From Candidatus Woesebacteria bacterium (GTDB lineage: Bacteria; Patescibacteriota; Microgenomatia; UBA12405), in NCBI GenBank assembly GCA_035402805.1, contig DAONDY010000002.1:149963-213962 (forward strand): DNA of 64,000 nucleotides, in the 5' to 3' direction. The position numbers were made by a program, and so were the translations under genes. The notes beneath the pieces are model-generated. The model was not told where the DNA came from. It did not search any database and saw only the letters and a list, made by a program, of their open reading frames with translations. Shown here one piece after another: positions 8,164 to 63,002 of this stretch; the first letter of the stretch is position 1; each line of letters begins with the position of its first letter.

Positions 8164-8179
8164 TATTTCTTTGAGATTA

Positions 8180-8205
8180 AAAAAGCCCCCGAAAGGGGGC
8201 TTTTT
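8180..8205 (+). terminator. Rho-independent terminator aaaaagcccccgaaagggggcttttt after ppdK
   Basis: Perfect 7-bp GC stem plus T-run, seen in sequence. Confidence 0.8.
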
Positions 8206-8210
8206 AAATA

Positions 8211-8231
8211 GGGCGACCACAAGAGTCGCCC
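8211..8231 (+). repeat. REP-like GC-rich hairpin gggcgac-cacaaga-gtcgccc immediately upstream of the RayT-like transposase gene
   Basis: Seen in sequence. Same gggcga...tcgccc stem type as the two hairpins inside the transposase ORF. Confidence 0.55.
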
Positions 8232-8253
8232 ATACACATGATAATATAATTGT

Positions 8254-8841
8254 ATGTATTATCACAGAAGATCGATTAGATTAAAGGGATATAATTATTC
8301 ACAAAATTGGTTTTATTTTGTAACCATATGTGCCAAAAATAGAGGTAATGTTTTTGGTGAAATTGTAGGGGCGAGGCGTGACTCGCCCTTAATTAATAAA
8401 AATAATATATTTGCAAACGATCTGAATAGTAATTTATTCGAAATGAAATTAAATCAAAATGGGGAAATTATTGATGAAATTTGGAAATCATTATCAATTC
8501 ATCATAATGTAATTTTGGATGAATTTATTATTATGCCAGACCATATACATTTTATTTTGGTAATTAAAAATGACTTAAATAAAAATCAAAATAAATTGGA
8601 AAATAATGAAAATTTGATATTAAAAAATAATAATAAGGGCGAGTCACGCCTCGCCCCTACATTAGGGTGGATTGTTGGAATTTTTAAAACAGAATCAACA
8701 AAACGAATTAATAAATTAAATGAGACGCCAAAAATTCAATTATGGCAACGCAATTATTATGAAAGAGTTATTCGTAATGAAAAAGAGTATTTGATGATTA
8801 AAAAATATATTAGAGATAATCCAAAAAATCTAGGTTTATAA
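8254..8841 (+). CDS. RayT-like (REP-associated) Y1 HUH transposase of the IS200/IS605 superfamily (195 aa)
   Basis: N-terminal YHRRSIRLKGYNYSQ..YFVTICAKNR signature of TnpA-REP proteins. HUH motif MPDHIHFIL. RAPTLG-like motif SRLAPTLGWIVGIFK. C-terminal catalytic Tyr region QRNYYERVIRNE. Confidence 0.8.
   Translation: MYYHRRSIRLKGYNYSQNWFYFVTICAKNRGNVFGEIVGARRDSPLINKNNIFANDLNSNLFEMKLNQNGEIIDEIWKSLSIHHNVILDEFIIMPDHIHFILVIKNDLNKNQNKLENNENLILKNNNKGESRLAPTLGWIVGIFKTESTKRINKLNETPKIQLWQRNYYERVIRNEKEYLMIKKYIRDNPKNLGL
8361..8675 (+). repeat. Perfect 28-bp inverted repeat pair (tgtaggggcgaggcgtgactcgccctta at ~8361-8388 and its reverse complement at ~8648-8675), each itself a gggcgag/ctcgccc hairpin, lying in-frame inside the transposase ORF and bracketing the HUH motif
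   Basis: Seen in sequence by reverse-complement comparison. Confidence 0.75.
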
Positions 8842-12171: not shown

Positions 12172-12182
12172 AAATCTTATTA

Positions 12183-12265
12183 AAAACTCTCGTTACAAAT
12201 TTTTTATAATCGGCGAATGTGCGTCGCACGTTCGATATTACAAAAAATTGCAACTTCGACTTTTT
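12183..12265 (+). repeat. Intergenic repeat family A, copy A1 (~85 bp; outer arms gttacaaattttttat / acaaaaaattgcaac, inner hairpin gaatgtgcg-tc-gcacgttcg)
   Basis: 80-90% identity by eye to copies at 37241-37330 and 58988-59075. Lies between two minus-strand genes. Confidence 0.7.
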
Positions 12266-12284
12266 AATTATTTTATAAATCATA

Positions 12285-36428: not shown

Positions 36429-37217
36429 CTAAAACTCTCCAAGTAATTTAATTTCAAGCTTAAGAGTGATGCCGAGTTTTTCTTTGGCTTGAGATTGAAT
36501 TAGTTGAATTAATTTAAAATAATCGGTAGCAGTGGCGTGGCCATTATTAACAATAAAATTAGCGTGGCTGGAGCTAATTTGAGCATCGCCAATACTAAAA
36601 CCTTTGAGATTTAATTGTTGATCGATAATTTGGCCGGTAGGTAATTGATTGGGAATATTTTTAAAAACACAACCGAGAGAATTCATGGGTTGAATTGCGG
36701 ATTTTTTTTGAATAATGTCTTGAACCTGTTTTTGGGCTAAAGATGGGTCACCTGGAGTTAATTTTAAAACTGCACAAACAATAAAGTCGCCGAATTTTTC
36801 AAGCGAATCGATAAATTGAGAAAAATGATTTTTGTTAATTCCATGAATGTCGCCAATAATGGCACCGCCGACAGTGGAGGGAATATAGGCAAATTCTTCC
36901 AAACCTAAAAGGTGATGATCAAGGCTGTAATTGATTAGAGATGATAGTTGAGTACCAGAAGAAACCCTAACTTTATCCTGATCCATAATCTCCATTTCTT
37001 CGGAATCGTTTTTAATAACTAAACCGCGAATGCCAGAATCAGAAATCAAGACATTAGAACCATTTCCTAATATAGTAATAGGTAAATTATTTTTTTGGCC
37101 ATATTGTAGAGCTTCAACAAATTCATCGGTAGTTTTGGTATGAATGAAAAAATCAGCTGGACCACCAATTTTAACGGTGGTGTAAGGGGCGAGGATGATG
37201 TTTTTTTGAATATCCAT
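36429..37217 (-). CDS. murB: UDP-N-acetylenolpyruvoylglucosamine reductase (short form, 262 aa)
   Basis: FAD-binding N-terminal domain (TTVKIGGPADFF) and MurB C-terminal motif GCVFKN. Confidence 0.75.
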   Translation of the reverse strand: MDIQKNIILAPYTTVKIGGPADFFIHTKTTDEFVEALQYGQKNNLPITILGNGSNVLISDSGIRGLVIKNDSEEMEIMDQDKVRVSSGTQLSSLINYSLDHHLLGLEEFAYIPSTVGGAIIGDIHGINKNHFSQFIDSLEKFGDFIVCAVLKLTPGDPSLAQKQVQDIIQKKSAIQPMNSLGCVFKNIPNQLPTGQIIDQQLNLKGFSIGDAQISSSHANFIVNNGHATATDYFKLIQLIQSQAKEKLGITLKLEIKLLGEF

Positions 37218-37240
37218 ACTTGTATTATCTCATTAAATTA

Positions 37241-37330
37241 AATTCTCGTCACAAATTTTTTATGTCTGGTGAATGTGGTCGCCCACGTTCAAGGACACAA
37301 AAAATTGTGTCTTCGAACTTAATTTATGTC
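37241..37330 (+). repeat. Intergenic repeat family A, copy A2 (inner hairpin gaatgtgg-tcgc-ccacgttc)
   Basis: Alignment by eye to A1/A3. Between divergent murB and ruvC. Confidence 0.7.
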
Positions 37331-37409
37331 TTATAAAATAATATTTTTGAGATAATAAAAAATTATGGGTTGTTGATGTGGAAAAGTGGAGAAAATTTGA
37401 TTTGTCCTA

Positions 37410-37530
37410 TAATTAAATCCCTCTTGTCCTGCGGACATCCTCCCTCAACGAGGGCGGAAGTCTTTTTATTTTTCTCCCTTTGTTAAGGGGAGATGTCTCC
37501 ACGCTAACGCGGGGAGACAGAGAGGATTTT
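37410..37530 (+). repeat. Family B repeat unit, copy B2 (…tcctccctcaacgagggcgga…ttttctccctttgttaaggggagatgtctcc…ggggagacagagaggatttt). Coordinates +/-10 bp.
   Basis: Same core as B1 and B3. Lies ~80 bp downstream of A2 and ends ~15 bp before ruvC start. Confidence 0.65.
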
Positions 37531-37543
37531 GATACAATGAATT

Positions 37544-38014
37544 ATGATATTAGGAATAGACCCAGGTTTAGCCAATACTGGATGGGCGATATTAAGCGAT
37601 GAAAAAACTTTGGTGGAGTGTGGATGCTTAAAAACTAAAATCAGCGACGGATCGGCCTTGAGATTAGATCAGATTTATTGTGAATTAGAAGGATTAATTA
37701 AAAAATACAAAATTGAAGCAATTGCTATTGAAACATTATTTTTTGCCAAAAATGCCAAGTCGGCATTAAAAGTAGCGGAAGCAATTGGAGTGATTAAAGT
37801 TTGTGGGCAGAGAAATAAAATTGAAGTGGTGGGTTTTACGCCGTTACAAGTTAAAATGGCTTTGGTTGGTTATGGGCGAGCCGAAAAAGAACAAGTGGAA
37901 ATAATGGTGAGAAATTTTTTGAATTTAGAGAAGAATATTAGTCCGAGTCATGCTTCGGATGCGGTGGCAGTAGCTTTGACTTATTTGTTTACTAATAAAA
38001 ATTTAGCTATTTGA
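37544..38014 (+). CDS. ruvC: Holliday junction resolvase RuvC
   Basis: MILGIDPGLANTGWAIL N-terminus with catalytic Asp, RNase H-fold conserved residues. Confidence 0.85.
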   Translation: MILGIDPGLANTGWAILSDEKTLVECGCLKTKISDGSALRLDQIYCELEGLIKKYKIEAIAIETLFFAKNAKSALKVAEAIGVIKVCGQRNKIEVVGFTPLQVKMALVGYGRAEKEQVEIMVRNFLNLEKNISPSHASDAVAVALTYLFTNKNLAI

Positions 38015-39870: not shown

Positions 39871-39956
39871 TGAGTGGCTCCTCTTATATCGGAATAATGA
39901 TTAATTAATATCAGTAAAACATATTAGATATTAGTGTGTCAATAATCAATTAAAAC

Positions 39957-40050
39957 CTACCCCTAACCCCTCCCTTAAAAAAGGAGGGGGAAATGTTTAT
40001 TTTTCTCCCTTTGTTAAGGGGAGATGTCACGAAGTGACAGAGAGGATTTT
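39957..40050 (+). repeat. Family B repeat unit, copy B3 (cccctcccttaaaaaaggagggg hairpin; tctccctttgttaaggggaga hairpin; gtcacgaagtgac hairpin; ...agagaggattttt)
   Basis: Seen in sequence. Overlaps the GTG-extended 5' end of the downstream ORF. Confidence 0.7.
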
Positions 40051-40066
40051 TAGTGTAGAATTGTTT

Positions 40067-41056
40067 ATGGACTATAAAATTGCATTTTTTGGAGTTAAAA
40101 GTTGGGAAAGAGAAATTATAGAAAAAAAGATTGCAGGGTTGGATGTTTTTGGGGTGGGGATTTTTGAGGGGGAAATTCAAGATAATTTAGAATTGGCGGC
40201 AAAATATGACATTATTTCGCCTTTTATTTATTCAAAAATGGATAAAGAGGTGTTGAATAAATTGCCGAATTTGAAAATGATTGCTACCAGATCGACGGGG
40301 ATGGATCATATAGATATTAGTGAGTGTGATAAGAGAAAAATAAAAGTAGTTAATGTACCGATTTATGGTTCAAACACAGTGGCGGAATATACTTTTGCTT
40401 TATTGTTGGCAATTGCTAAAAAAATAGTAGTGGCTCATCAATCAGTGGAGGATGGTGAATTCAATCCAGAGGGTTTAACTGGAGTGGATTTGTATGGAAA
40501 AACTTTAGGAGTAATAGGTTGTGGAAAAATAGGGCAAAACGTGATCAAGATTGCTAAAGGCTTTGGAATGAAGGTTTTAGGAGTTGATGGTAAACAAGAT
40601 CATCTTTTGGCTAAAAAAGTTGGTTTTAAATATGTAAGTTTAGAAGATTGTTTGCAGGAGTCGGATTTTATAACACTTCATGTGCCAGCTATACCAGAGA
40701 CATTTCATATGATTAATAAGAAAAATATTAAATTGATGAAAAAGGGAAGTTATCTGATTAATACTTCGCGGGGAGCGGTAATTGAAACTGAGGCAATTGT
40801 GTGGGCATTAAATAATAAAATTTTGACTGGGGCGGCTTTGGATGTAACCGAGGAAGAAAATCTTTTGGAAAGTATGAGTGTGGTGATGAGCAGAAAAATT
40901 ACTAAAGATGATTTACAGGAGGTTTTGAGTTTTCATATGCTTCGAGATCGGGATGATGTAATATTCACGCCGCATAATGCTTTTAATACTAAAGAAGCAA
41001 TTGAAAGAATTGTAGAAACGACGATTGAAAATATTAAGAACTTTTTAAAGAATTAA
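40067..41056 (+). CDS. D-isomer-specific 2-hydroxyacid dehydrogenase (D-lactate dehydrogenase-like)
   Basis: NAD-binding GVIGCGKIGQNV, catalytic R/E/H triad region (TSRGAVIETEA...FTPHNAF). ORF track frame from 40034, start moved to ATG 40067 (MDYKIAFFG). Confidence 0.75.
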   Translation: MDYKIAFFGVKSWEREIIEKKIAGLDVFGVGIFEGEIQDNLELAAKYDIISPFIYSKMDKEVLNKLPNLKMIATRSTGMDHIDISECDKRKIKVVNVPIYGSNTVAEYTFALLLAIAKKIVVAHQSVEDGEFNPEGLTGVDLYGKTLGVIGCGKIGQNVIKIAKGFGMKVLGVDGKQDHLLAKKVGFKYVSLEDCLQESDFITLHVPAIPETFHMINKKNIKLMKKGSYLINTSRGAVIETEAIVWALNNKILTGAALDVTEEENLLESMSVVMSRKITKDDLQEVLSFHMLRDRDDVIFTPHNAFNTKEAIERIVETTIENIKNFLKN

Positions 41057-43634: not shown

Positions 43635-43836
43635 ATTTTTTTATAAAAAAACCTCGCCGAAGTGCGAGGGTAATGTAAAACAAGATAAATTGTTTTGCCT
43701 CGGCGGGATTTATTTTTGTACCTGCTGTCTTCGGTTGATGGGTTTATTGTACTAAGAAATAGTTTAAATGTAAAGAATTAAAAAAAGAAGGTCTGGGGAA
43801 GCAATGGTTTAAATTGTTTCCCGAGACCTCGGATGT
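43635..43836 (-). promoter_or_regulatory. rplJ leader region containing GC hairpin cctcgc-acttcg-gcgagg followed by U-run 9 nt before the start codon (possible L10-responsive attenuator, or terminator of upstream gene)
   Basis: Hairpin at 43651-43670 plus second GC segment gcctcggcggg at ~43697. Interpretation by analogy with rplJ leader autoregulation. Confidence 0.35.
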
Positions 43837-49787: not shown

Positions 49788-49854
49788 TTGTTTTTATTTA
49801 ATAAATAATTAAGGAATAAATCCCTCTAAATCTCCCTTTGACAAGGGAGACTTT
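49788..49854 (-). promoter_or_regulatory. rplK-rplA intergenic segment with hairpin tctccctttgacaagggaga (possible L1 autoregulatory mRNA site or a fragment of repeat family B)
   Basis: Hairpin seen in sequence. Close resemblance to family-B hairpin tctccctttgttaaggggaga. Confidence 0.3.
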
Positions 49855-50277
49855 TTAGATAATCTCAACACCCATAGATTTGGCAGTGCCCATGACTGAT
49901 CTTTTGGCTGCTTCTAAATCTTTAGTGTTTAAATCGACAATTTTAGCTTTTGCAATTTGCTCGACTTGAGCCATGGTTAACTTACCGACTTTTTCTTTGC
50001 CAGTAGTGCCAGCGCCTTTAGCGATGCCACTTATTTTTTTGATCATATCAGAAACTGGAGGCTGTTTTAAAATGAATTCGAAAGAACGATCTTCAAAAAT
50101 AGTGATAACTGCAGGGATAATGGATCCACGCATTTCTTTAGTTCGGTCATTAAATTCATTACAGAAATCCATGATCTTGATACCTTGAGGACCAAGAGCA
50201 GTACCGACTGGAGGAGCTGGATTAGCGCTACCTGCCGGAATAGTTAATTTAACAATTGTTTTTATTTTTTTAGCCAT
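49855..50277 (-). CDS. rplK: 50S ribosomal protein L11
   Basis: N-terminal PAGSANPAPPVGTALGPQGI motif, typical L11. Confidence 0.92.
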   Translation of the reverse strand: MAKKIKTIVKLTIPAGSANPAPPVGTALGPQGIKIMDFCNEFNDRTKEMRGSIIPAVITIFEDRSFEFILKQPPVSDMIKKISGIAKGAGTTGKEKVGKLTMAQVEQIAKAKIVDLNTKDLEAAKRSVMGTAKSMGVEII

Positions 50278-51196: not shown

Positions 51197-51210
51197 GAAA
51201 GTATTATAAC

Positions 51211-51704
51211 AAAACCCCTTTGTTTCGCTTCGCTCAACATCTCCCCTTGATAAAGGGGAGAAACATAATAAGATTAAAATGTGAAATATATTACTGATAT
51301 TAAAGCTAAAACTAATAAATTAAACATAAGATATTTAGAATCTTTAAAAAAGGTGGCAAGGAATAATAGAAGTAAGCCAACTCAAGCAGAATTTATAATG
51401 TGGCAACATTTAAGAAAAAATAAATTTGGTTGTAAATTTACGAGACAAAAACCGATTAATAGATTTGTTTTGGATTTTTATTGTTCTAAATTATTGTTAT
51501 GTATAGAAATAGATGGAGAATCTCATTTAAATAGACAAAATTATGATCTAGAAAGAGATAAATTCTTAGAAAATTGTTTAGGTATTAAAACAATTAGATT
51601 TAGTAATGATGAGGTTTTGAATGATTTTTTGAAAGTAAAAGAAAAACTTCTCCCCTTTATCAAGGGGAGATGTCACAAAATGAAATGAGTGACAGAAGGG
51701 TTTT
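51211..51704 (+). mobile_element. Putative compact mobile element: DUF559 endonuclease ORF bounded by ~55-bp imperfect terminal inverted repeats (left aaaacccctttgtttcgcttcgctcaacatctccccttgataaaggggag; right ctcccctttatcaaggggagatgtcac…gtgacagaagggtttt), each containing palindromic hairpins
   Basis: Reverse-complement comparison of both ends: identical 24-nt inner block, matching aaaaccc/gggtttt tips. Right repeat supplies the last 13 codons of the ORF. Confidence 0.6.
51281..51688 (+). CDS. DUF559 (Vsr/MutH-like restriction endonuclease fold) protein, 135 aa
   Basis: …EFIMWQHLRKNKFGCKFTRQKPINRFVLDFYCSKLLLCIEIDGESH… matches DUF559 core (D…E.DG..H). GTG start. Confidence 0.65.
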   Translation: MKYITDIKAKTNKLNIRYLESLKKVARNNRSKPTQAEFIMWQHLRKNKFGCKFTRQKPINRFVLDFYCSKLLLCIEIDGESHLNRQNYDLERDKFLENCLGIKTIRFSNDEVLNDFLKVKEKLLPFIKGRCHKMK

Positions 51705-51835
51705 AAACACCGCGGAATTGTTGCAAAATTCAATTTTGATACATTTTAGTCTATTGACTCGTACTAGTGGTGGTGGATATGATGATTAACATACACTATA
51801 AATAGTGTTTTATTAATTATAATAAAAATTACAAA

Positions 51836-57824: not shown

Positions 57825-58982
57825 ATGATAGATGAACAAGTTAGAGACTTAATTAAAAAAGAAGAAGAAAGACAAGAGAAATTAGTTCACTTAATTCCCA
57901 GTGAAAACTTTGCCTCTGATGAAGTTAGAATGGCGTTGGGAAGCTGTTTAACTAATAAATATGCCGAGGGTTATCCTGGCAGAAGATATTATCAGGGCAA
58001 CGAATTTATAGATCAAATCGAAAATTTGGCTATTGAGAGGGGTAAAAAGGTGTTGGGAGTGGAACATTTAAATGTTCAGCCATATTCTGGAAGTCCAGCT
58101 AATAGTGCTGTTCAAATGGCATTATTGGAACAAGGGGATAAAATTTGTGGATTGAAATTATCGGCTGGCGGACATTTAACTCATGGTCATCCAAAAATTA
58201 CTTTTTCAGGAAAATTTTTTGAAAGTGTGCAGTATGATGTGGAAGAAGATGGACGAATTGATTATGATAAGTTGGAAAAATTGGTTTTAGAAGAAAAACC
58301 GAAAATGATTATAGCCGGGACTACGGCTTATCCTTATATTTTAGATTTCAAAAGATTTGGGGAAATTGCTGATAAAGTTGGAGCTTGGTTGGTGGCGGAT
58401 ATTTCTCATATTGCTGGGCTAGTGGTTGGCGGAGTTCATCCGAGTCCAAATGAATATGTTCATGTTATTACTTCTACAACTCATAAAAGTTTAAGAGGTC
58501 CACGGGGGGCAGTGATTGGAATTACTAAAAAAGGAATGGAAAAAGATGTTGATTTGGCTAAAAAAATTGATCGAGCCGTTTTTCCAGGTTTACAAGGCGG
58601 TCCACACGAAAATCAAATAGCTGCTTTGGCGGTAGCTTTTAAAGAATGTGATACGCCAGAATTTAAGGATTATGCGGCTCAGATTGTTAAAAATGCTAAA
58701 GTTTTAGCTGAAACTTTACGAAAAAATGGGTTAAAAGTTTTTGGGACGGAAAATCATTTAATGGTGGTGGAGGTGGGTTTTGAAAAAGGCAAAGATGCGG
58801 CAGTAAAATTGGAAGAAAATGGGATTGTGGTTAATGCTAATACAATTCCTCATGATACAGCTGGTCCCTTTAGACCATCTGGAATTAGAATTGGAACTCC
58901 AGCCATGACAACCAGAGGGTGGAAAGAAAAAGAATTCGAGGAATTAGGAAATAAAATTGCAGGGATAATAAAGAATTTATAA
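57825..58982 (+). CDS. glyA: Serine hydroxymethyltransferase
   Basis: PLP-lysine motif TTHKSLRGPRGA, GGHLTHG. Confidence 0.9.
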   Translation: MIDEQVRDLIKKEEERQEKLVHLIPSENFASDEVRMALGSCLTNKYAEGYPGRRYYQGNEFIDQIENLAIERGKKVLGVEHLNVQPYSGSPANSAVQMALLEQGDKICGLKLSAGGHLTHGHPKITFSGKFFESVQYDVEEDGRIDYDKLEKLVLEEKPKMIIAGTTAYPYILDFKRFGEIADKVGAWLVADISHIAGLVVGGVHPSPNEYVHVITSTTHKSLRGPRGAVIGITKKGMEKDVDLAKKIDRAVFPGLQGGPHENQIAALAVAFKECDTPEFKDYAAQIVKNAKVLAETLRKNGLKVFGTENHLMVVEVGFEKGKDAAVKLEENGIVVNANTIPHDTAGPFRPSGIRIGTPAMTTRGWKEKEFEELGNKIAGIIKNL

Positions 58983-58987
58983 ATTTT

Positions 58988-59075
58988 AAATTCTCGTTAC
59001 AAATTTTTTATGTCTGGTGAATGTGCGGTGCACGTTCAAGGCCATAAAAAATTGCAACTTCGGATTTAAAATTAC
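58988..59075 (+). repeat. Intergenic repeat family A, copy A3 (inner hairpin gaatgtgc-ggt-gcacgttc) between convergent glyA and a small membrane-protein gene
   Basis: Alignment by eye to A1/A2. Confidence 0.7.
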
Positions 59076-59092
59076 GTCTGTGAACTCTAAGT

Positions 59093-61986: not shown

Positions 61987-62856
61987 TTATACTTGAGCTT
62001 GAGCAAAAGTCCCAACAGTAAGACCGTTAGGTTTTTTGATGCCACGAATACGATACCAGATTTCGTTAATAAGATGGTTAGGGATTAAACTAACAACAGT
62101 AATTTGCATTAAATTTAAAGCGATAGCTTTTAAACTTGGTCTAAAACCAAGATTTAATGCAGCAAAACGGCTTTTGATGGTTAATTTAAAAGTAGCTTTG
62201 GGATTTTTATGAGAAAGGCTGCCATTTAAATGACGATAGAAAAGTAAATTGTCTTCAAGGTTGGCAATTTGACCGTGAAGCATAAATCTAAACATTAAAT
62301 TAATTTCTTCAGCCGATGATTGAATTGGTTTGTACCAGATAAAATTTTTAGGTAATTTAGAAAGATTGACCATCATTGATGGTTGTTGCATAGGAATAGC
62401 CCAAAAAATCATATCTTTAAGTTTTTCGGCTTGAGTAGGAAAATTTTTATTACCGATAATATTATTAAATTCATCAATAACAACACATTGACCACCAACA
62501 GCGACAACTTGATAATTTTTCTTTAAAAACTGAATTTGTTTTTCAAGACGATTGGCAAAAGAAATGTCATCAGCATCCATACGGGCTAAAAATTTACCAC
62601 GAGCTTTGGAAATAGCAATATTGGAAGTTAAGCTAACTCCTAAATTAATTTGATTTTTAATAGCAATAATACGAGAATCTTTTTTGGCAAATGATTTGAT
62701 TATTTTCCAAGAATCGTCGGTAGAAGCGTCGTCAACAATGATAAATTCGAAATTAGAAAAAGTCTGATTTAAAATACTTTCAATGGCTTGATCAAGATAA
62801 GGGGAAGCGTTGAAAACAGGCATGTAGATGGTGATAAGTGGTTTAATATTTTTCAT
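61987..62856 (-). CDS. Family 2 glycosyltransferase (soluble, GT-A fold)
   Basis: IYMPVFNASPYLDQAIESILNQT, DDASTDDS and DADD motifs. Confidence 0.8.
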   Translation of the reverse strand: MKNIKPLITIYMPVFNASPYLDQAIESILNQTFSNFEFIIVDDASTDDSWKIIKSFAKKDSRIIAIKNQINLGVSLTSNIAISKARGKFLARMDADDISFANRLEKQIQFLKKNYQVVAVGGQCVVIDEFNNIIGNKNFPTQAEKLKDMIFWAIPMQQPSMMVNLSKLPKNFIWYKPIQSSAEEINLMFRFMLHGQIANLEDNLLFYRHLNGSLSHKNPKATFKLTIKSRFAALNLGFRPSLKAIALNLMQITVVSLIPNHLINEIWYRIRGIKKPNGLTVGTFAQAQV

Positions 62857-63002
62857 TAGTTTTGTTTTTTCCAGTTTCGTCCTTTTGGACTCATCAGTAT
62901 CGACAATATCGATAGACTGGAGTGAGCTGAAAAAATAGAGAAGTAATTTAAAAGCAAAAGTGCTTCAAACTATTCATATTCTTTCAGCTCATCAGCCGTG
63001 AT

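Follow-up and report, generated by a model that had tools for sequence, protein, structure and literature searches.

The closest described counterparts of the repeats analysed here are the REPIN-RAYT systems, in which short palindromic units are dispersed in intergenic DNA, inverted units form doublets around a spacer, and the partner gene, which encodes a transposase of the HUH/Y1 (IS200-like) kind, is itself bracketed by inverted units. MITEs and other miniature repeats, such as the Correia, RUP, BOX, and ERIC elements, are non-coding sequences with terminal inverted repeats that are present in some relatives and absent from others and that share their ends with a longer partner, and copies of the Rickettsia palindromic elements can sit in frame in a protein gene. 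A protein family provides a further point of reference. DUF559 (PF04480) is found in very many bacterial genomes, where it is annotated as “endonuclease domain-containing protein,” and a structure, 3hrl, has been solved; to our knowledge, the family is without a known function and is not a known transposase. In a survey of RefSeq genomes, DUF559 was overrepresented among the genes that inverted repeats overlap (odds ratio 14.3), an enrichment that was left unexplained there (PMC9881135), and our literature search found DUF559 tied to flanking repeats nowhere beyond this statistical listing.

The divergent intergenic region between murB and ruvC described below contains two elements, A2 and B2, each from a family of its own of short interspersed repeats that form hairpins and are of the REP/MITE kind. 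B2 is part of an undescribed system of repeats linked to genes for DUF559 nucleases.

The murB-ruvC gap and its orthologues

The window, meaning the whole 64,000-nt stretch of DNA that was analysed, is AT-rich and contains 31 intergenic regions of at least 40 bp, 5.0 kb in sum. Homologues of its proteins are recorded under Candidatus Shapirobacteria or Microgenomates, which places the genome in the Candidate Phyla Radiation (CPR). One of them is the 326-bp gap between murB and ruvC, which is laid out as follows (R1 is our covariance model of the ~55-nt B unit):

36429-37217, minus strand: murB, flanking the gap
37224-37232, minus strand: candidate proximal murB promoter, an extended −10 TGAGATAAT found in a promoter scan with its TG, 6 nt before the ATG at 37217
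37238-37330: A2, a long imperfect palindrome of family A (nhmmer E 1e-25, nhmmer start 37234)
37328-37413: non-repeat core between A2 and B2, 86 bp, with a DnaA-box-like TTTTCCACA (reverse complement of 37377-37385) and a CCTATAAT box
37412-37464, minus strand: left unit of B2, an inverted copy (R1 47.2 bits, E 1e-11)
37467-37532, plus strand: right unit of B2 (R1 60.4 bits, exact 24-mer match)
37530-37538, plus strand: candidate proximal ruvC promoter, an extended −10 TGATACAAT, 5 nt before the ATG at 37544
37544-38014, plus strand: ruvC, flanking the gap

The 24-mers that define families A and B occur 3 times each in the window, against 0.00 occurrences expected from shuffles, and the folding of A2 and B2 is much more stable than that of shuffled sequence (z −5 to −7). 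The preliminary description of this stretch had the gap consisting almost entirely of these two repeats. Both are indeed present there, but they cover only ~210 of the 326 bp (~64%), with 86 bp of non-repeat DNA between them. Its estimate that B2 stops about 15 bp before the ruvC start was close, the distance measured from the 3′ edge of B2 to the ATG being 13 nt. The outer stem of A2 is AT-rich and is followed by the internal loop C[TC]G / C[TTC]G, by a second stem made of A/T runs, and by the apical hairpin GAATGTGG-TCGC-CCACGTTC; the fold of A2 has a z of −5.2 on the plus strand and −7.3 on the minus strand. The right unit of B2 runs from hairpin b (TCTCCCTTTGTTAAGGGGAGA) through TG and a variable hairpin a (TCTCCACGCTAACGCGGGGAGA) to a conserved end (CAGAGAGGATTT).

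Contigs of the same species from 2 unrelated samples (L001 and L002) were 100% identical over 361 bp of the gap, so that A2 and B2 are fixed in the species, and for the same reason this pair was uninformative as comparison material. Three of 5 short contigs with the same ruvC break inside B2, which is the usual behavior of assemblers at a repeat.

Assignment of these elements to known RNA families met with little success. A scan of the window at Rfam gathering thresholds returned 2 tRNAs, an L10 leader, and a hammerhead only, and E-value scans of A2 and B2, the A′ element, the DUF559 cassette (both introduced below), and locus L013 gave nothing credible, with a single sub-threshold match to whalefall-1 RNA (RF01762). 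The right unit of B2 resembles the two-hairpin layout of that RNA with its GAGGA-containing 3′ end (19.2 bits, E 0.014); the gathering threshold is 37, no other unit, doublet, or cassette arm matches, and we regard this as a weak or chance similarity. There is no terminator-like site with a U tract in 37150-37600. A phage origin was rejected, as neither the A nor the B pattern was found in a viral contig collection, and an end motif common to A and B (AAAWYC) was set aside as too short and too AT-rich to serve as evidence.

The gap was compared with its orthologues in 4 other species (L017, L019, L020, and L021), whose MurB proteins are 73-82% identical to that of the window. In all of them and in the window, the core is 86 nt long, without indels, and invariant in most columns. 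On these comparative grounds, we take the core to be ancestral regulatory DNA. Two more specific readings were rejected. For a small RNA, the 86-bp core lacks a consensus RNA structure on either strand. As a replication origin, the core would have a single DnaA-like box, perfect in 3 relatives and with one mismatch in the window, and the window has no excess of boxes of this kind (31 against 24 ± 5 expected).

B2 is absent from the orthologous regions of all 4 species. The position of A2 is empty in L017 and is occupied by an A′ element in L019, by a short hairpin with an A-like 3′ part in L020, and by a GC-rich, REP-like palindrome starting GTAGGGG in L021. The site 5′ of a 2-hydroxyacid dehydrogenase gene likewise holds B3 in the window, A and a right B unit in L020, A alone in L019, and a GTAGGGG palindrome in L021. 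The occurrence of different hairpin families at the same orthologous positions marks these positions as hot spots that were colonised independently, and because these relatives are without B2 and have the A2 position empty or differently filled, the insertions of A2 and B2 are independent and recent. Conserved operator DNA, the alternative to the real dispersed repeats proposed in the preliminary description, does not account for these elements, since the 4 relatives lack A2 and B2 and extra copies are present elsewhere.

Each repeat abuts a candidate −10 box. The pattern TGnTAnnAT-N5-ATG at ruvC is kept in L019, L020, and L021, all 3 orthologues that could be read there, and TATAAT-N5/6-ATG at murB is kept in 4 of 4. 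The conserved ruvC −10 lies inside the 13 bp left free by B2, which makes it more likely that B2 belongs to the −35/upstream zone than to the transcript. It is therefore doubtful that ruvCAB transcription must start in or cross repeat DNA, as had been claimed. If the candidate −10 boxes are promoters, the murB and ruvC mRNAs would be leaderless, or nearly so, and A2 and B2 would lie outside the transcripts. ruvC could have an additional, distal promoter in the conserved CCTATAAT at 37406-37413, which would place B2 in a leader; the retention of this box in L019, though ruvC is not downstream there, counts against this reading. Any influence that A2 or B2 may have on the expression of murB or ruvC is likewise inferred. 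In the sequence of events that we propose, A2 and B2 would have inserted separately, on either side of the older 86-bp core, each immediately 5′ of the −10 box of the neighboring gene, murB or ruvC.

Family A and its adjacency to B units

Family A has 2 further copies in the window, and a third element is related to it:

12178-12273: A1, a family A copy between 2 minus-strand genes (24-mer and nhmmer)
58980-59079: A3, a family A copy located 3′ of glyA in a gap between convergent genes (24-mer and nhmmer)
1890-1999: A′ element, of a sister subfamily with different helices (A′ profile E 3e-29)

A profile built from the 3 A copies has no match to 1890-1999 at E ≤ 1. Conversely, when 1890-1999 was combined into an A′ profile with a similar element located 5′ of murB in L019, this profile found 6 further copies in other genomes and no A copies; relatives of A′ are located in L019, L092, L025, L088, L082, L117, and L120. 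The A′ element of the window is preceded by an A-like left-end fragment, AAATTCTCGTTA, and A and A′ have in common a left-end motif (AAATTCTCG) and an asymmetric internal loop of identical sequence, in which C[TC]G faces C[TTC]G, while their helix sequences differ. They are sister subfamilies of one long-hairpin kind. The 11 distinct copies of family A from the window and related loci form one long hairpin, with compensatory changes in 9 of 21 predicted pairs, and a T.G pair in the apical stem is conserved in 9 of the 11. No gene is flanked by A arms in any related locus examined, and A/A′ is a separate long-hairpin family for which no partner gene was found. The RAYT-like protein encoded in the window (8254-8841) is without a homologue in the other loci. 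The asymmetry of G.U against A.C pairs and the plus and minus fold energies are mixed in A, A′, and B units and do not single out a transcribed strand.

The adjacency of A2 and B2 had been taken as one of 2 instances of the same pairing, the other at 1338-1990, and it had been suggested that the families are inserted together or that one is a target for the other. The second instance does not hold, as B1 and A′ lie in separate intergenic regions with a 414-bp gene for a 137-aa Big_1-domain protein (1456-1869) between them, and the element at 1890-1999 is A′ rather than A. With 4 of the 31 intergenic regions containing A-type elements and 5 containing B units, the chance of at least one shared region is P = 0.52, and the adjacency between murB and ruvC thus needs no special explanation.

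A functional coupling of A and B, through co-insertion or with one as the target of the other, finds its only support in other genomes, where an A or A′ hairpin is followed 7-25 nt on by a single B unit in plus orientation. Order and orientation are constant over about 5 independent sites (L009, L020, L136/L049, L120b, and one orthologous site common to L128, L120a, L044, and L025), which is more than we would expect by chance, and in this weaker form the suggestion retains some substance. It fails at murB-ruvC, where A2 and B2 are 82 nt apart with the conserved core between them, were gained independently, and share a region no more often than chance predicts. With the supposed second pairing split by a gene, and with most A copies and most B units standing alone, we consider coupling highly improbable. 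The adjacency of A2 and B2 is a coincidence of 2 insertion-tolerant promoter flanks, not a coupled element.

B units and DUF559 cassettes

A B unit is ~55 nt long and consists of hairpin b, TG, hairpin a, and a conserved end, CAGAGRGGWTTT. Twelve half-elements align to this one unit: the left and right halves of B1-B3, the flanks of the window's DUF559 gene, and the flanks of those in L006 and L009. The 7-bp hairpin b is conserved (TTCTCCCYTTnnnnAAGGGGAGA), whereas hairpin a is hypervariable between copies, and the tetranucleotide GTAG does not occur in the unit alignment. In the window, R1 has exactly 8 strong matches, which pair up as 4 inverted doublets; three are compact (B1, B2, and B3), and one surrounds a DUF559 open reading frame. 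Apart from B2, the window contains:

1331-1455: B1, a gene-less inverted doublet (R1 47.0 and 62.1 bits)
39949-40052: B3, a doublet without a gene, 5′ of the 2-hydroxyacid dehydrogenase gene (R1 44.0 and 66.3 bits)
49815-49855, minus strand: a degenerate solitary unit between rplA and rplK that lacks hairpin a (R1 20.3 bits, E 0.0013)
51208-51707, plus strand: the DUF559 cassette, with an inverted unit at 51208-51266, the ORF at 51281-51688, and a second unit at 51644-51707

B1, B2, and B3 fold into closed multi-hairpin structures (z −5 to −6). The doublets are ~117 bp long and contain no ORF; their terminal inverted repeats are AAATCCCTCTTGTC / GACAGAGAGGATTT, and an AT-rich spacer of 15-30 nt separates the units of gene-less doublets. 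The doublet ends run into a self-complementary TTAAA/TTTAA context, and the empty sites available are too diverged to fix the junctions and so to define a target-site duplication. Doublets of the B1 type also occur in L055, L120, and L103, and gene-less doublets of B architecture were found at over 10 additional loci. When metagenomes were searched for hairpin b exactly as it stands in B1-B3, 35 contigs matched, of which 2 are the 3′ ends of DUF559 genes with the same arm; most of the others contain a single unit, located downstream of a stop codon or in an intergenic region. Since most of these copies are single units and not doublets, an origin as internally deleted transposons does not cover them.

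Under a strict pattern, 56 units contained 41 different hairpin a segments, some types of which recur across genomes beside different hairpin b variants. The closing stems of hairpin a average 4.5 bp, against 0.59 bp in shuffles. Stems maintained in this way, together with the 9 of 21 compensated pairs of family A, would suit a host function, in which A and B are kept as promoter-upstream modules, sites for nucleoid or regulatory proteins, insulators, or hairpins that stabilise or process RNA, and the link to DUF559 is secondary. The same reading is favored by the precise placement of elements just 5′ of the −10 boxes at murB, at ruvC, and at the 2-hydroxyacid dehydrogenase gene, by the recurrence of different families at the same orthologous positions, and by a slight bias of single units toward the orientation of the upstream gene (28 versus 14). 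However, the same promoters do without the elements in close relatives, and units are found in all gene contexts and even in coding sequence, one of them lying in frame inside a 316-aa MiaA/IPPT ORF (miaA, L106). The pair asymmetry fits no consistent transcribed strand, and neither the U tract of a terminator nor an Rfam family at threshold is present. Taken together, these observations make a host function quite unlikely as the explanation of A and B.

The association of B units with a gene is clearest in the cassette at 51208-51707. The ORF belongs to DUF559 (PF04480, E 5e-28), its units score 64.5 and 66.1 bits with R1, and the 26-nt arms are 100% complementary. The 3′ unit overlaps the last codons of the gene (..LLPFIKGRCHKMK*), and the C-terminus of the protein, ..LLPFIKGRC.., is hairpin b read in frame; the same tail is found in homologues down to ~46% identity. 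The arms depart from B1-B3 by 3 differences in hairpin b and end in GAAGGGTTTT instead of GAGAGGATTT, so a master copy matching B1-B3, if there is one, lies outside the window.

For a broader comparison, 80 DUF559 loci were collected from species-representative genomes, nearly all of them Shapirobacteria, together with loci obtained by exact protein look-ups, and 300 bp upstream of each gene were compared with its 3′ end, using displacements of 1.5 kb as controls. A flanking inverted repeat with z > 5 against shuffles is present at 65 of 81 loci. The median score is 40 for inverted repeats, 23 for direct repeats, and 20 for the displaced controls; the inverted score exceeds the direct one in 69 of 81 loci (Wilcoxon 6e-8), and scores of at least 35 were reached by 53 of 81 loci and by none of 62 control pairs. 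R1 has 156 matches in 87 related loci; typically, a minus-strand unit lies just 5′ of the start codon and a plus-strand unit covers the stop, with gene-less doublets elsewhere in the flanks. In L103 and L132, longer partners have the same ends as gene-less doublets and a predicted nuclease as their product. The 80 loci are close relatives (41-85% identity), and the association may therefore be specific to this clade.

Inverted units like those of B2 thus bracket DUF559 genes both in this genome and in Shapirobacteria, which suggests that B2 is a gene-less, non-autonomous form of the DUF559 cassette. On balance, we lean toward the view that B units and doublets are related to DUF559 cassettes as their non-autonomous forms, with the conserved segments of the unit as the substrate of the nuclease.

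Besides the absence of B2 from relatives and the in-frame unit in miaA, features of the cassettes are also signs of movement. Cassettes differ in location between genomes, for instance lying between secE and nrdR or, in L009, between the Competence and Lactamase_B ORFs derived from comEC. At least 2-4 DUF559 copies are present per assembly in 18 assemblies, L032 has a tandem pair, and paralogues within a genome are ~50-60% identical and hence old. The cassette between secE and nrdR is syntenic in 5 species, in the same orientation in the window, L006, L023, and L034 and inverted in L024, where the protein is 83% identical and the whole cassette, both arms included, has been turned around. Synteny in 5 species also fits long vertical persistence without recent movement. 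The inverted cassette raises the possibility that the inverted units are recombination sites for a programmed inversion of DUF559 and that gene-less doublets are leftovers of this switch, and DUF559 is indeed enriched among predicted targets of programmed inversion (PMC9881135). No invertase gene adjoins the cassettes, however, and the inversion is seen between species only. A switch would also leave scattered single units, the in-frame copy in miaA, and the hypervariable hairpin unexplained, and we regard it as very unlikely.

The DUF559 protein and comparison with known systems

The DUF559 protein of the window is 135 aa long, with no obvious separate DNA-binding domain and no NUMOD/HTH region. 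Its best match by sequence in the PDB, and the only solved relative found by this route, is 3hrl, an uncharacterised DUF559 protein from Neisseria (E 2e-14). A Foldseek search with its AlphaFold model (pLDDT 81.5) returned 3hrl (E 2.5e-6), followed by 3r3p (E 3e-3, TM 0.75, probability 1.0), with Vsr and TnsA far lower. The latter structure is the catalytic domain of the EDxHD homing endonuclease I-Bth0305I, an enzyme that has a Vsr-type active site and acts as a dimer on a pseudo-palindromic target (PMC3239194). Residues E76, D78, H82, and D89 are invariant in 20 DUF559 homologues and fit this active site. DUF559 is accordingly modelled as a small PD-(D/E)XK nuclease of the Vsr/EDxHD type, a prediction that draws on the fold comparison.

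We infer that DUF559 is the enzyme that acts on B units and mobilises them. In the mechanism that we propose, the protein would recognise hairpin b and the ..CAGAGRGGWTTT end, which are the conserved portions of the unit, and cleavage at the units would drive the copying, inversion, and spread of cassettes and of their gene-less relatives, much as in the case of RAYT transposases and their REPINs, although the enzyme is of another kind. More speculatively, a Vsr-type enzyme could sense, in extruded DNA, the T.G pairs that are conserved in the apical stem of family A and in hairpin b of B1-B3.

In the main rival reading, the relationship is turned around, such that the units and doublets spread by other means, for example through a Y1/RAYT-like transposase (8254-8841) or replication slippage, and DUF559 is a free-standing homing endonuclease whose gene has settled inside the doublet, its own symmetrical target, and copies itself into empty ones. 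The closest characterised fold is that of such an enzyme, one that works as a dimer on a pseudo-palindromic site (PMC3239194), and the DUF559 gene always lies between 2 b hairpins, at the place where gene-less doublets have their 15-30 nt AT-rich spacer. The occurrence of both cassette orientations at one site is what a symmetrical target predicts, and the ORF at 8254-8841 in the window does have HUH and Tyr motifs. Against homing, no orthologous site was found with a doublet that is empty in one genome and gene-bearing in another, the age of the within-genome paralogues (~50-60% identity) gives no sign of recent homing, and the GC palindromes of the RAYT-like gene (GTAGGGGCGAG..) are of a different family from B. 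We therefore judge homing unlikely and retain the reading in which DUF559 itself acts on the units.

A consistent physical link between DUF559 and a defined, repeated DNA structure gives a large uncharacterised family a testable role. The bacteria concerned belong to the CPR, and several active-looking hairpin-repeat families are present in them despite genomes smaller than 1 Mb with ~8% intergenic DNA. The accumulation of repeats upstream of the −10 boxes of seemingly leaderless genes matters for promoter annotation, and the breaking of contigs inside B2 matters for metagenome assembly.

Among described systems, the Rickettsia palindromic elements resemble B in that a copy can sit in frame in a protein gene, here miaA of L106. 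I-Bth0305I (3r3p) and Vsr agree with DUF559 in predicted fold and in the acidic and histidine residues that are invariant, and the site on which I-Bth0305I acts is pseudo-palindromic; DUF559 differs in being a 135-aa protein without a NUMOD/HTH region that is not located inside an intron or intein. With MITEs and the Correia, RUP, BOX, and ERIC repeats, B shares a length of ~120 bp, terminal inverted repeats (AAATCCCTC...GAGAGGATTT), the lack of coding capacity, presence/absence polymorphism between relatives, and a longer partner with common ends. It departs from them in that the longer partner encodes no recognised transposase and in that single half-units are commoner than doublets.

The window also contains, with the RAYT-like gene at 8254-8841, GC-rich palindromes of that gene's own, and GTAG is found at 8364-8391 as well as in the palindrome of L021.

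The resemblance of the B system to REPIN-RAYT systems is the most extensive. Short palindromic units are dispersed in intergenic DNA (8-9 units in 64 kb), inverted units form doublets with a spacer, a pair of inverted units also encloses the partner gene, and stems are kept by compensatory change; the locus of the partner gene may likewise persist by vertical descent (here, synteny between secE and nrdR extends to 5 species). In contrast to REPIN-RAYT systems, the partner is a DUF559 protein of the PD-(D/E)XK (Vsr/EDxHD-like) kind and not an HUH/Y1 (IS200-like) transposase, its gene is present in multiple copies, and the B unit lacks GTAG and has 2 hairpins, one of them hypervariable. It is conceivable, although we hold it to be somewhat doubtful, that DUF559 proteins are the enzymatic partners of an undescribed REPIN-like class of palindromes and that these constitute a second, mechanistically independent replicator of the REPIN-RAYT type in the ultra-small genomes of the CPR.

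Promoter-like boxes and the murB-ruvC core

In front of murB, ruvC and the 2-hydroxyacid dehydrogenase gene, a -10-like hexamer that is kept in relatives stands just 5 to 6 nt upstream of each start codon:

37224-37232, 37530-37538 and 40050-40070, and orthologues: -10-like hexamers of the three genes

Because these conserved hexamers lie so close to the start codons, their placement in the sequence suggests that leaderless mRNAs are widespread in this lineage. The hairpin repeats are inserted directly upstream of the boxes in all three cases.

Between the two repeat units of the murB-ruvC gap lies a core of 86 bp (37328-37413), which is constant in length and highly conserved across five species. 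On its minus strand it reads CCACTTATCCACATCAACAACCCATA, with a DnaA box that is perfect, TTATCCACA, in three relatives (L019-L021) and carries one mismatch in the window and in a fourth (L017). No RNA structure was found in the core across the five species. The core could be a control region, regulated by DnaA or bound by another protein.

DUF559 cassettes in other genomes

In one species, L024 (3930-4420), the DUF559 cassette at secE/nrdR is flipped as a whole, both arms with it, with respect to these two genes; the four others share the orientation of the window (51208-51707). Another locus, L032, carries two DUF559 cassettes on one contig (3992-4420 and 5791-6207), 1.4 kb apart and each with its own inverted arms. 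A further cassette lies in a different context:

L009, 2002-4198: DUF559 cassette flanked by two ORFs, one with a Competence domain (upstream) and one with a Lactamase_B domain (downstream)

Together these two ORFs look like a split comEC. The left unit of this cassette is read through by the upstream ORF and the downstream ORF starts within the right unit, and an A copy plus a single B unit (1876-2034) stand ahead of the Competence-domain ORF. Many of the MAG records with Shapirobacteria-like DUF559 loci (L026-L028, L030, L032 and others) bear the title "uncultured Gammaproteobacteria" or "Pseudomonadales", apparently a case of mislabelled bins.

Known RNA families and repeats within coding sequence

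Among the known RNA families recognized in the window are the following:

62869-62922, minus strand: type III hammerhead ribozyme (49.2 bits, above the Rfam gathering score of 48.5); a family 2 glycosyltransferase gene (61987-62856) has its start codon 13 nt downstream
43637-43752, minus strand: ribosomal protein L10 leader (RF00557, 52.2 bits), in its expected place upstream of rplJ

A transposase-like ORF, in which the HIH and YYE motifs are recognizable, contains palindromes in frame:

8178-8232: hairpins near the ORF
8254-8841: RAYT/IS200-like Y1 transposase ORF (PF01797, E 8e-6)
8364-8391 and 8634-8661: two GC-rich palindromes, TGTAGGGGCGAGGCGTGACTCGCCCTTA, 28 nt, 100% complementary

In the protein, these palindromes read ..VGARRDSPL.. 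and ..GESRLAPT... L021 has similar GTAGGGG palindromes at the murB-upstream and dehydrogenase-upstream hot spots.

In L106 (reverse strand, 990-1937), a MiaA/IPPT gene carries an in-frame insertion of a B-type unit, which adds the protein segment ..NSPFVKGRCPQDREDL.., an arrangement reminiscent of the Rickettsia palindromic elements.
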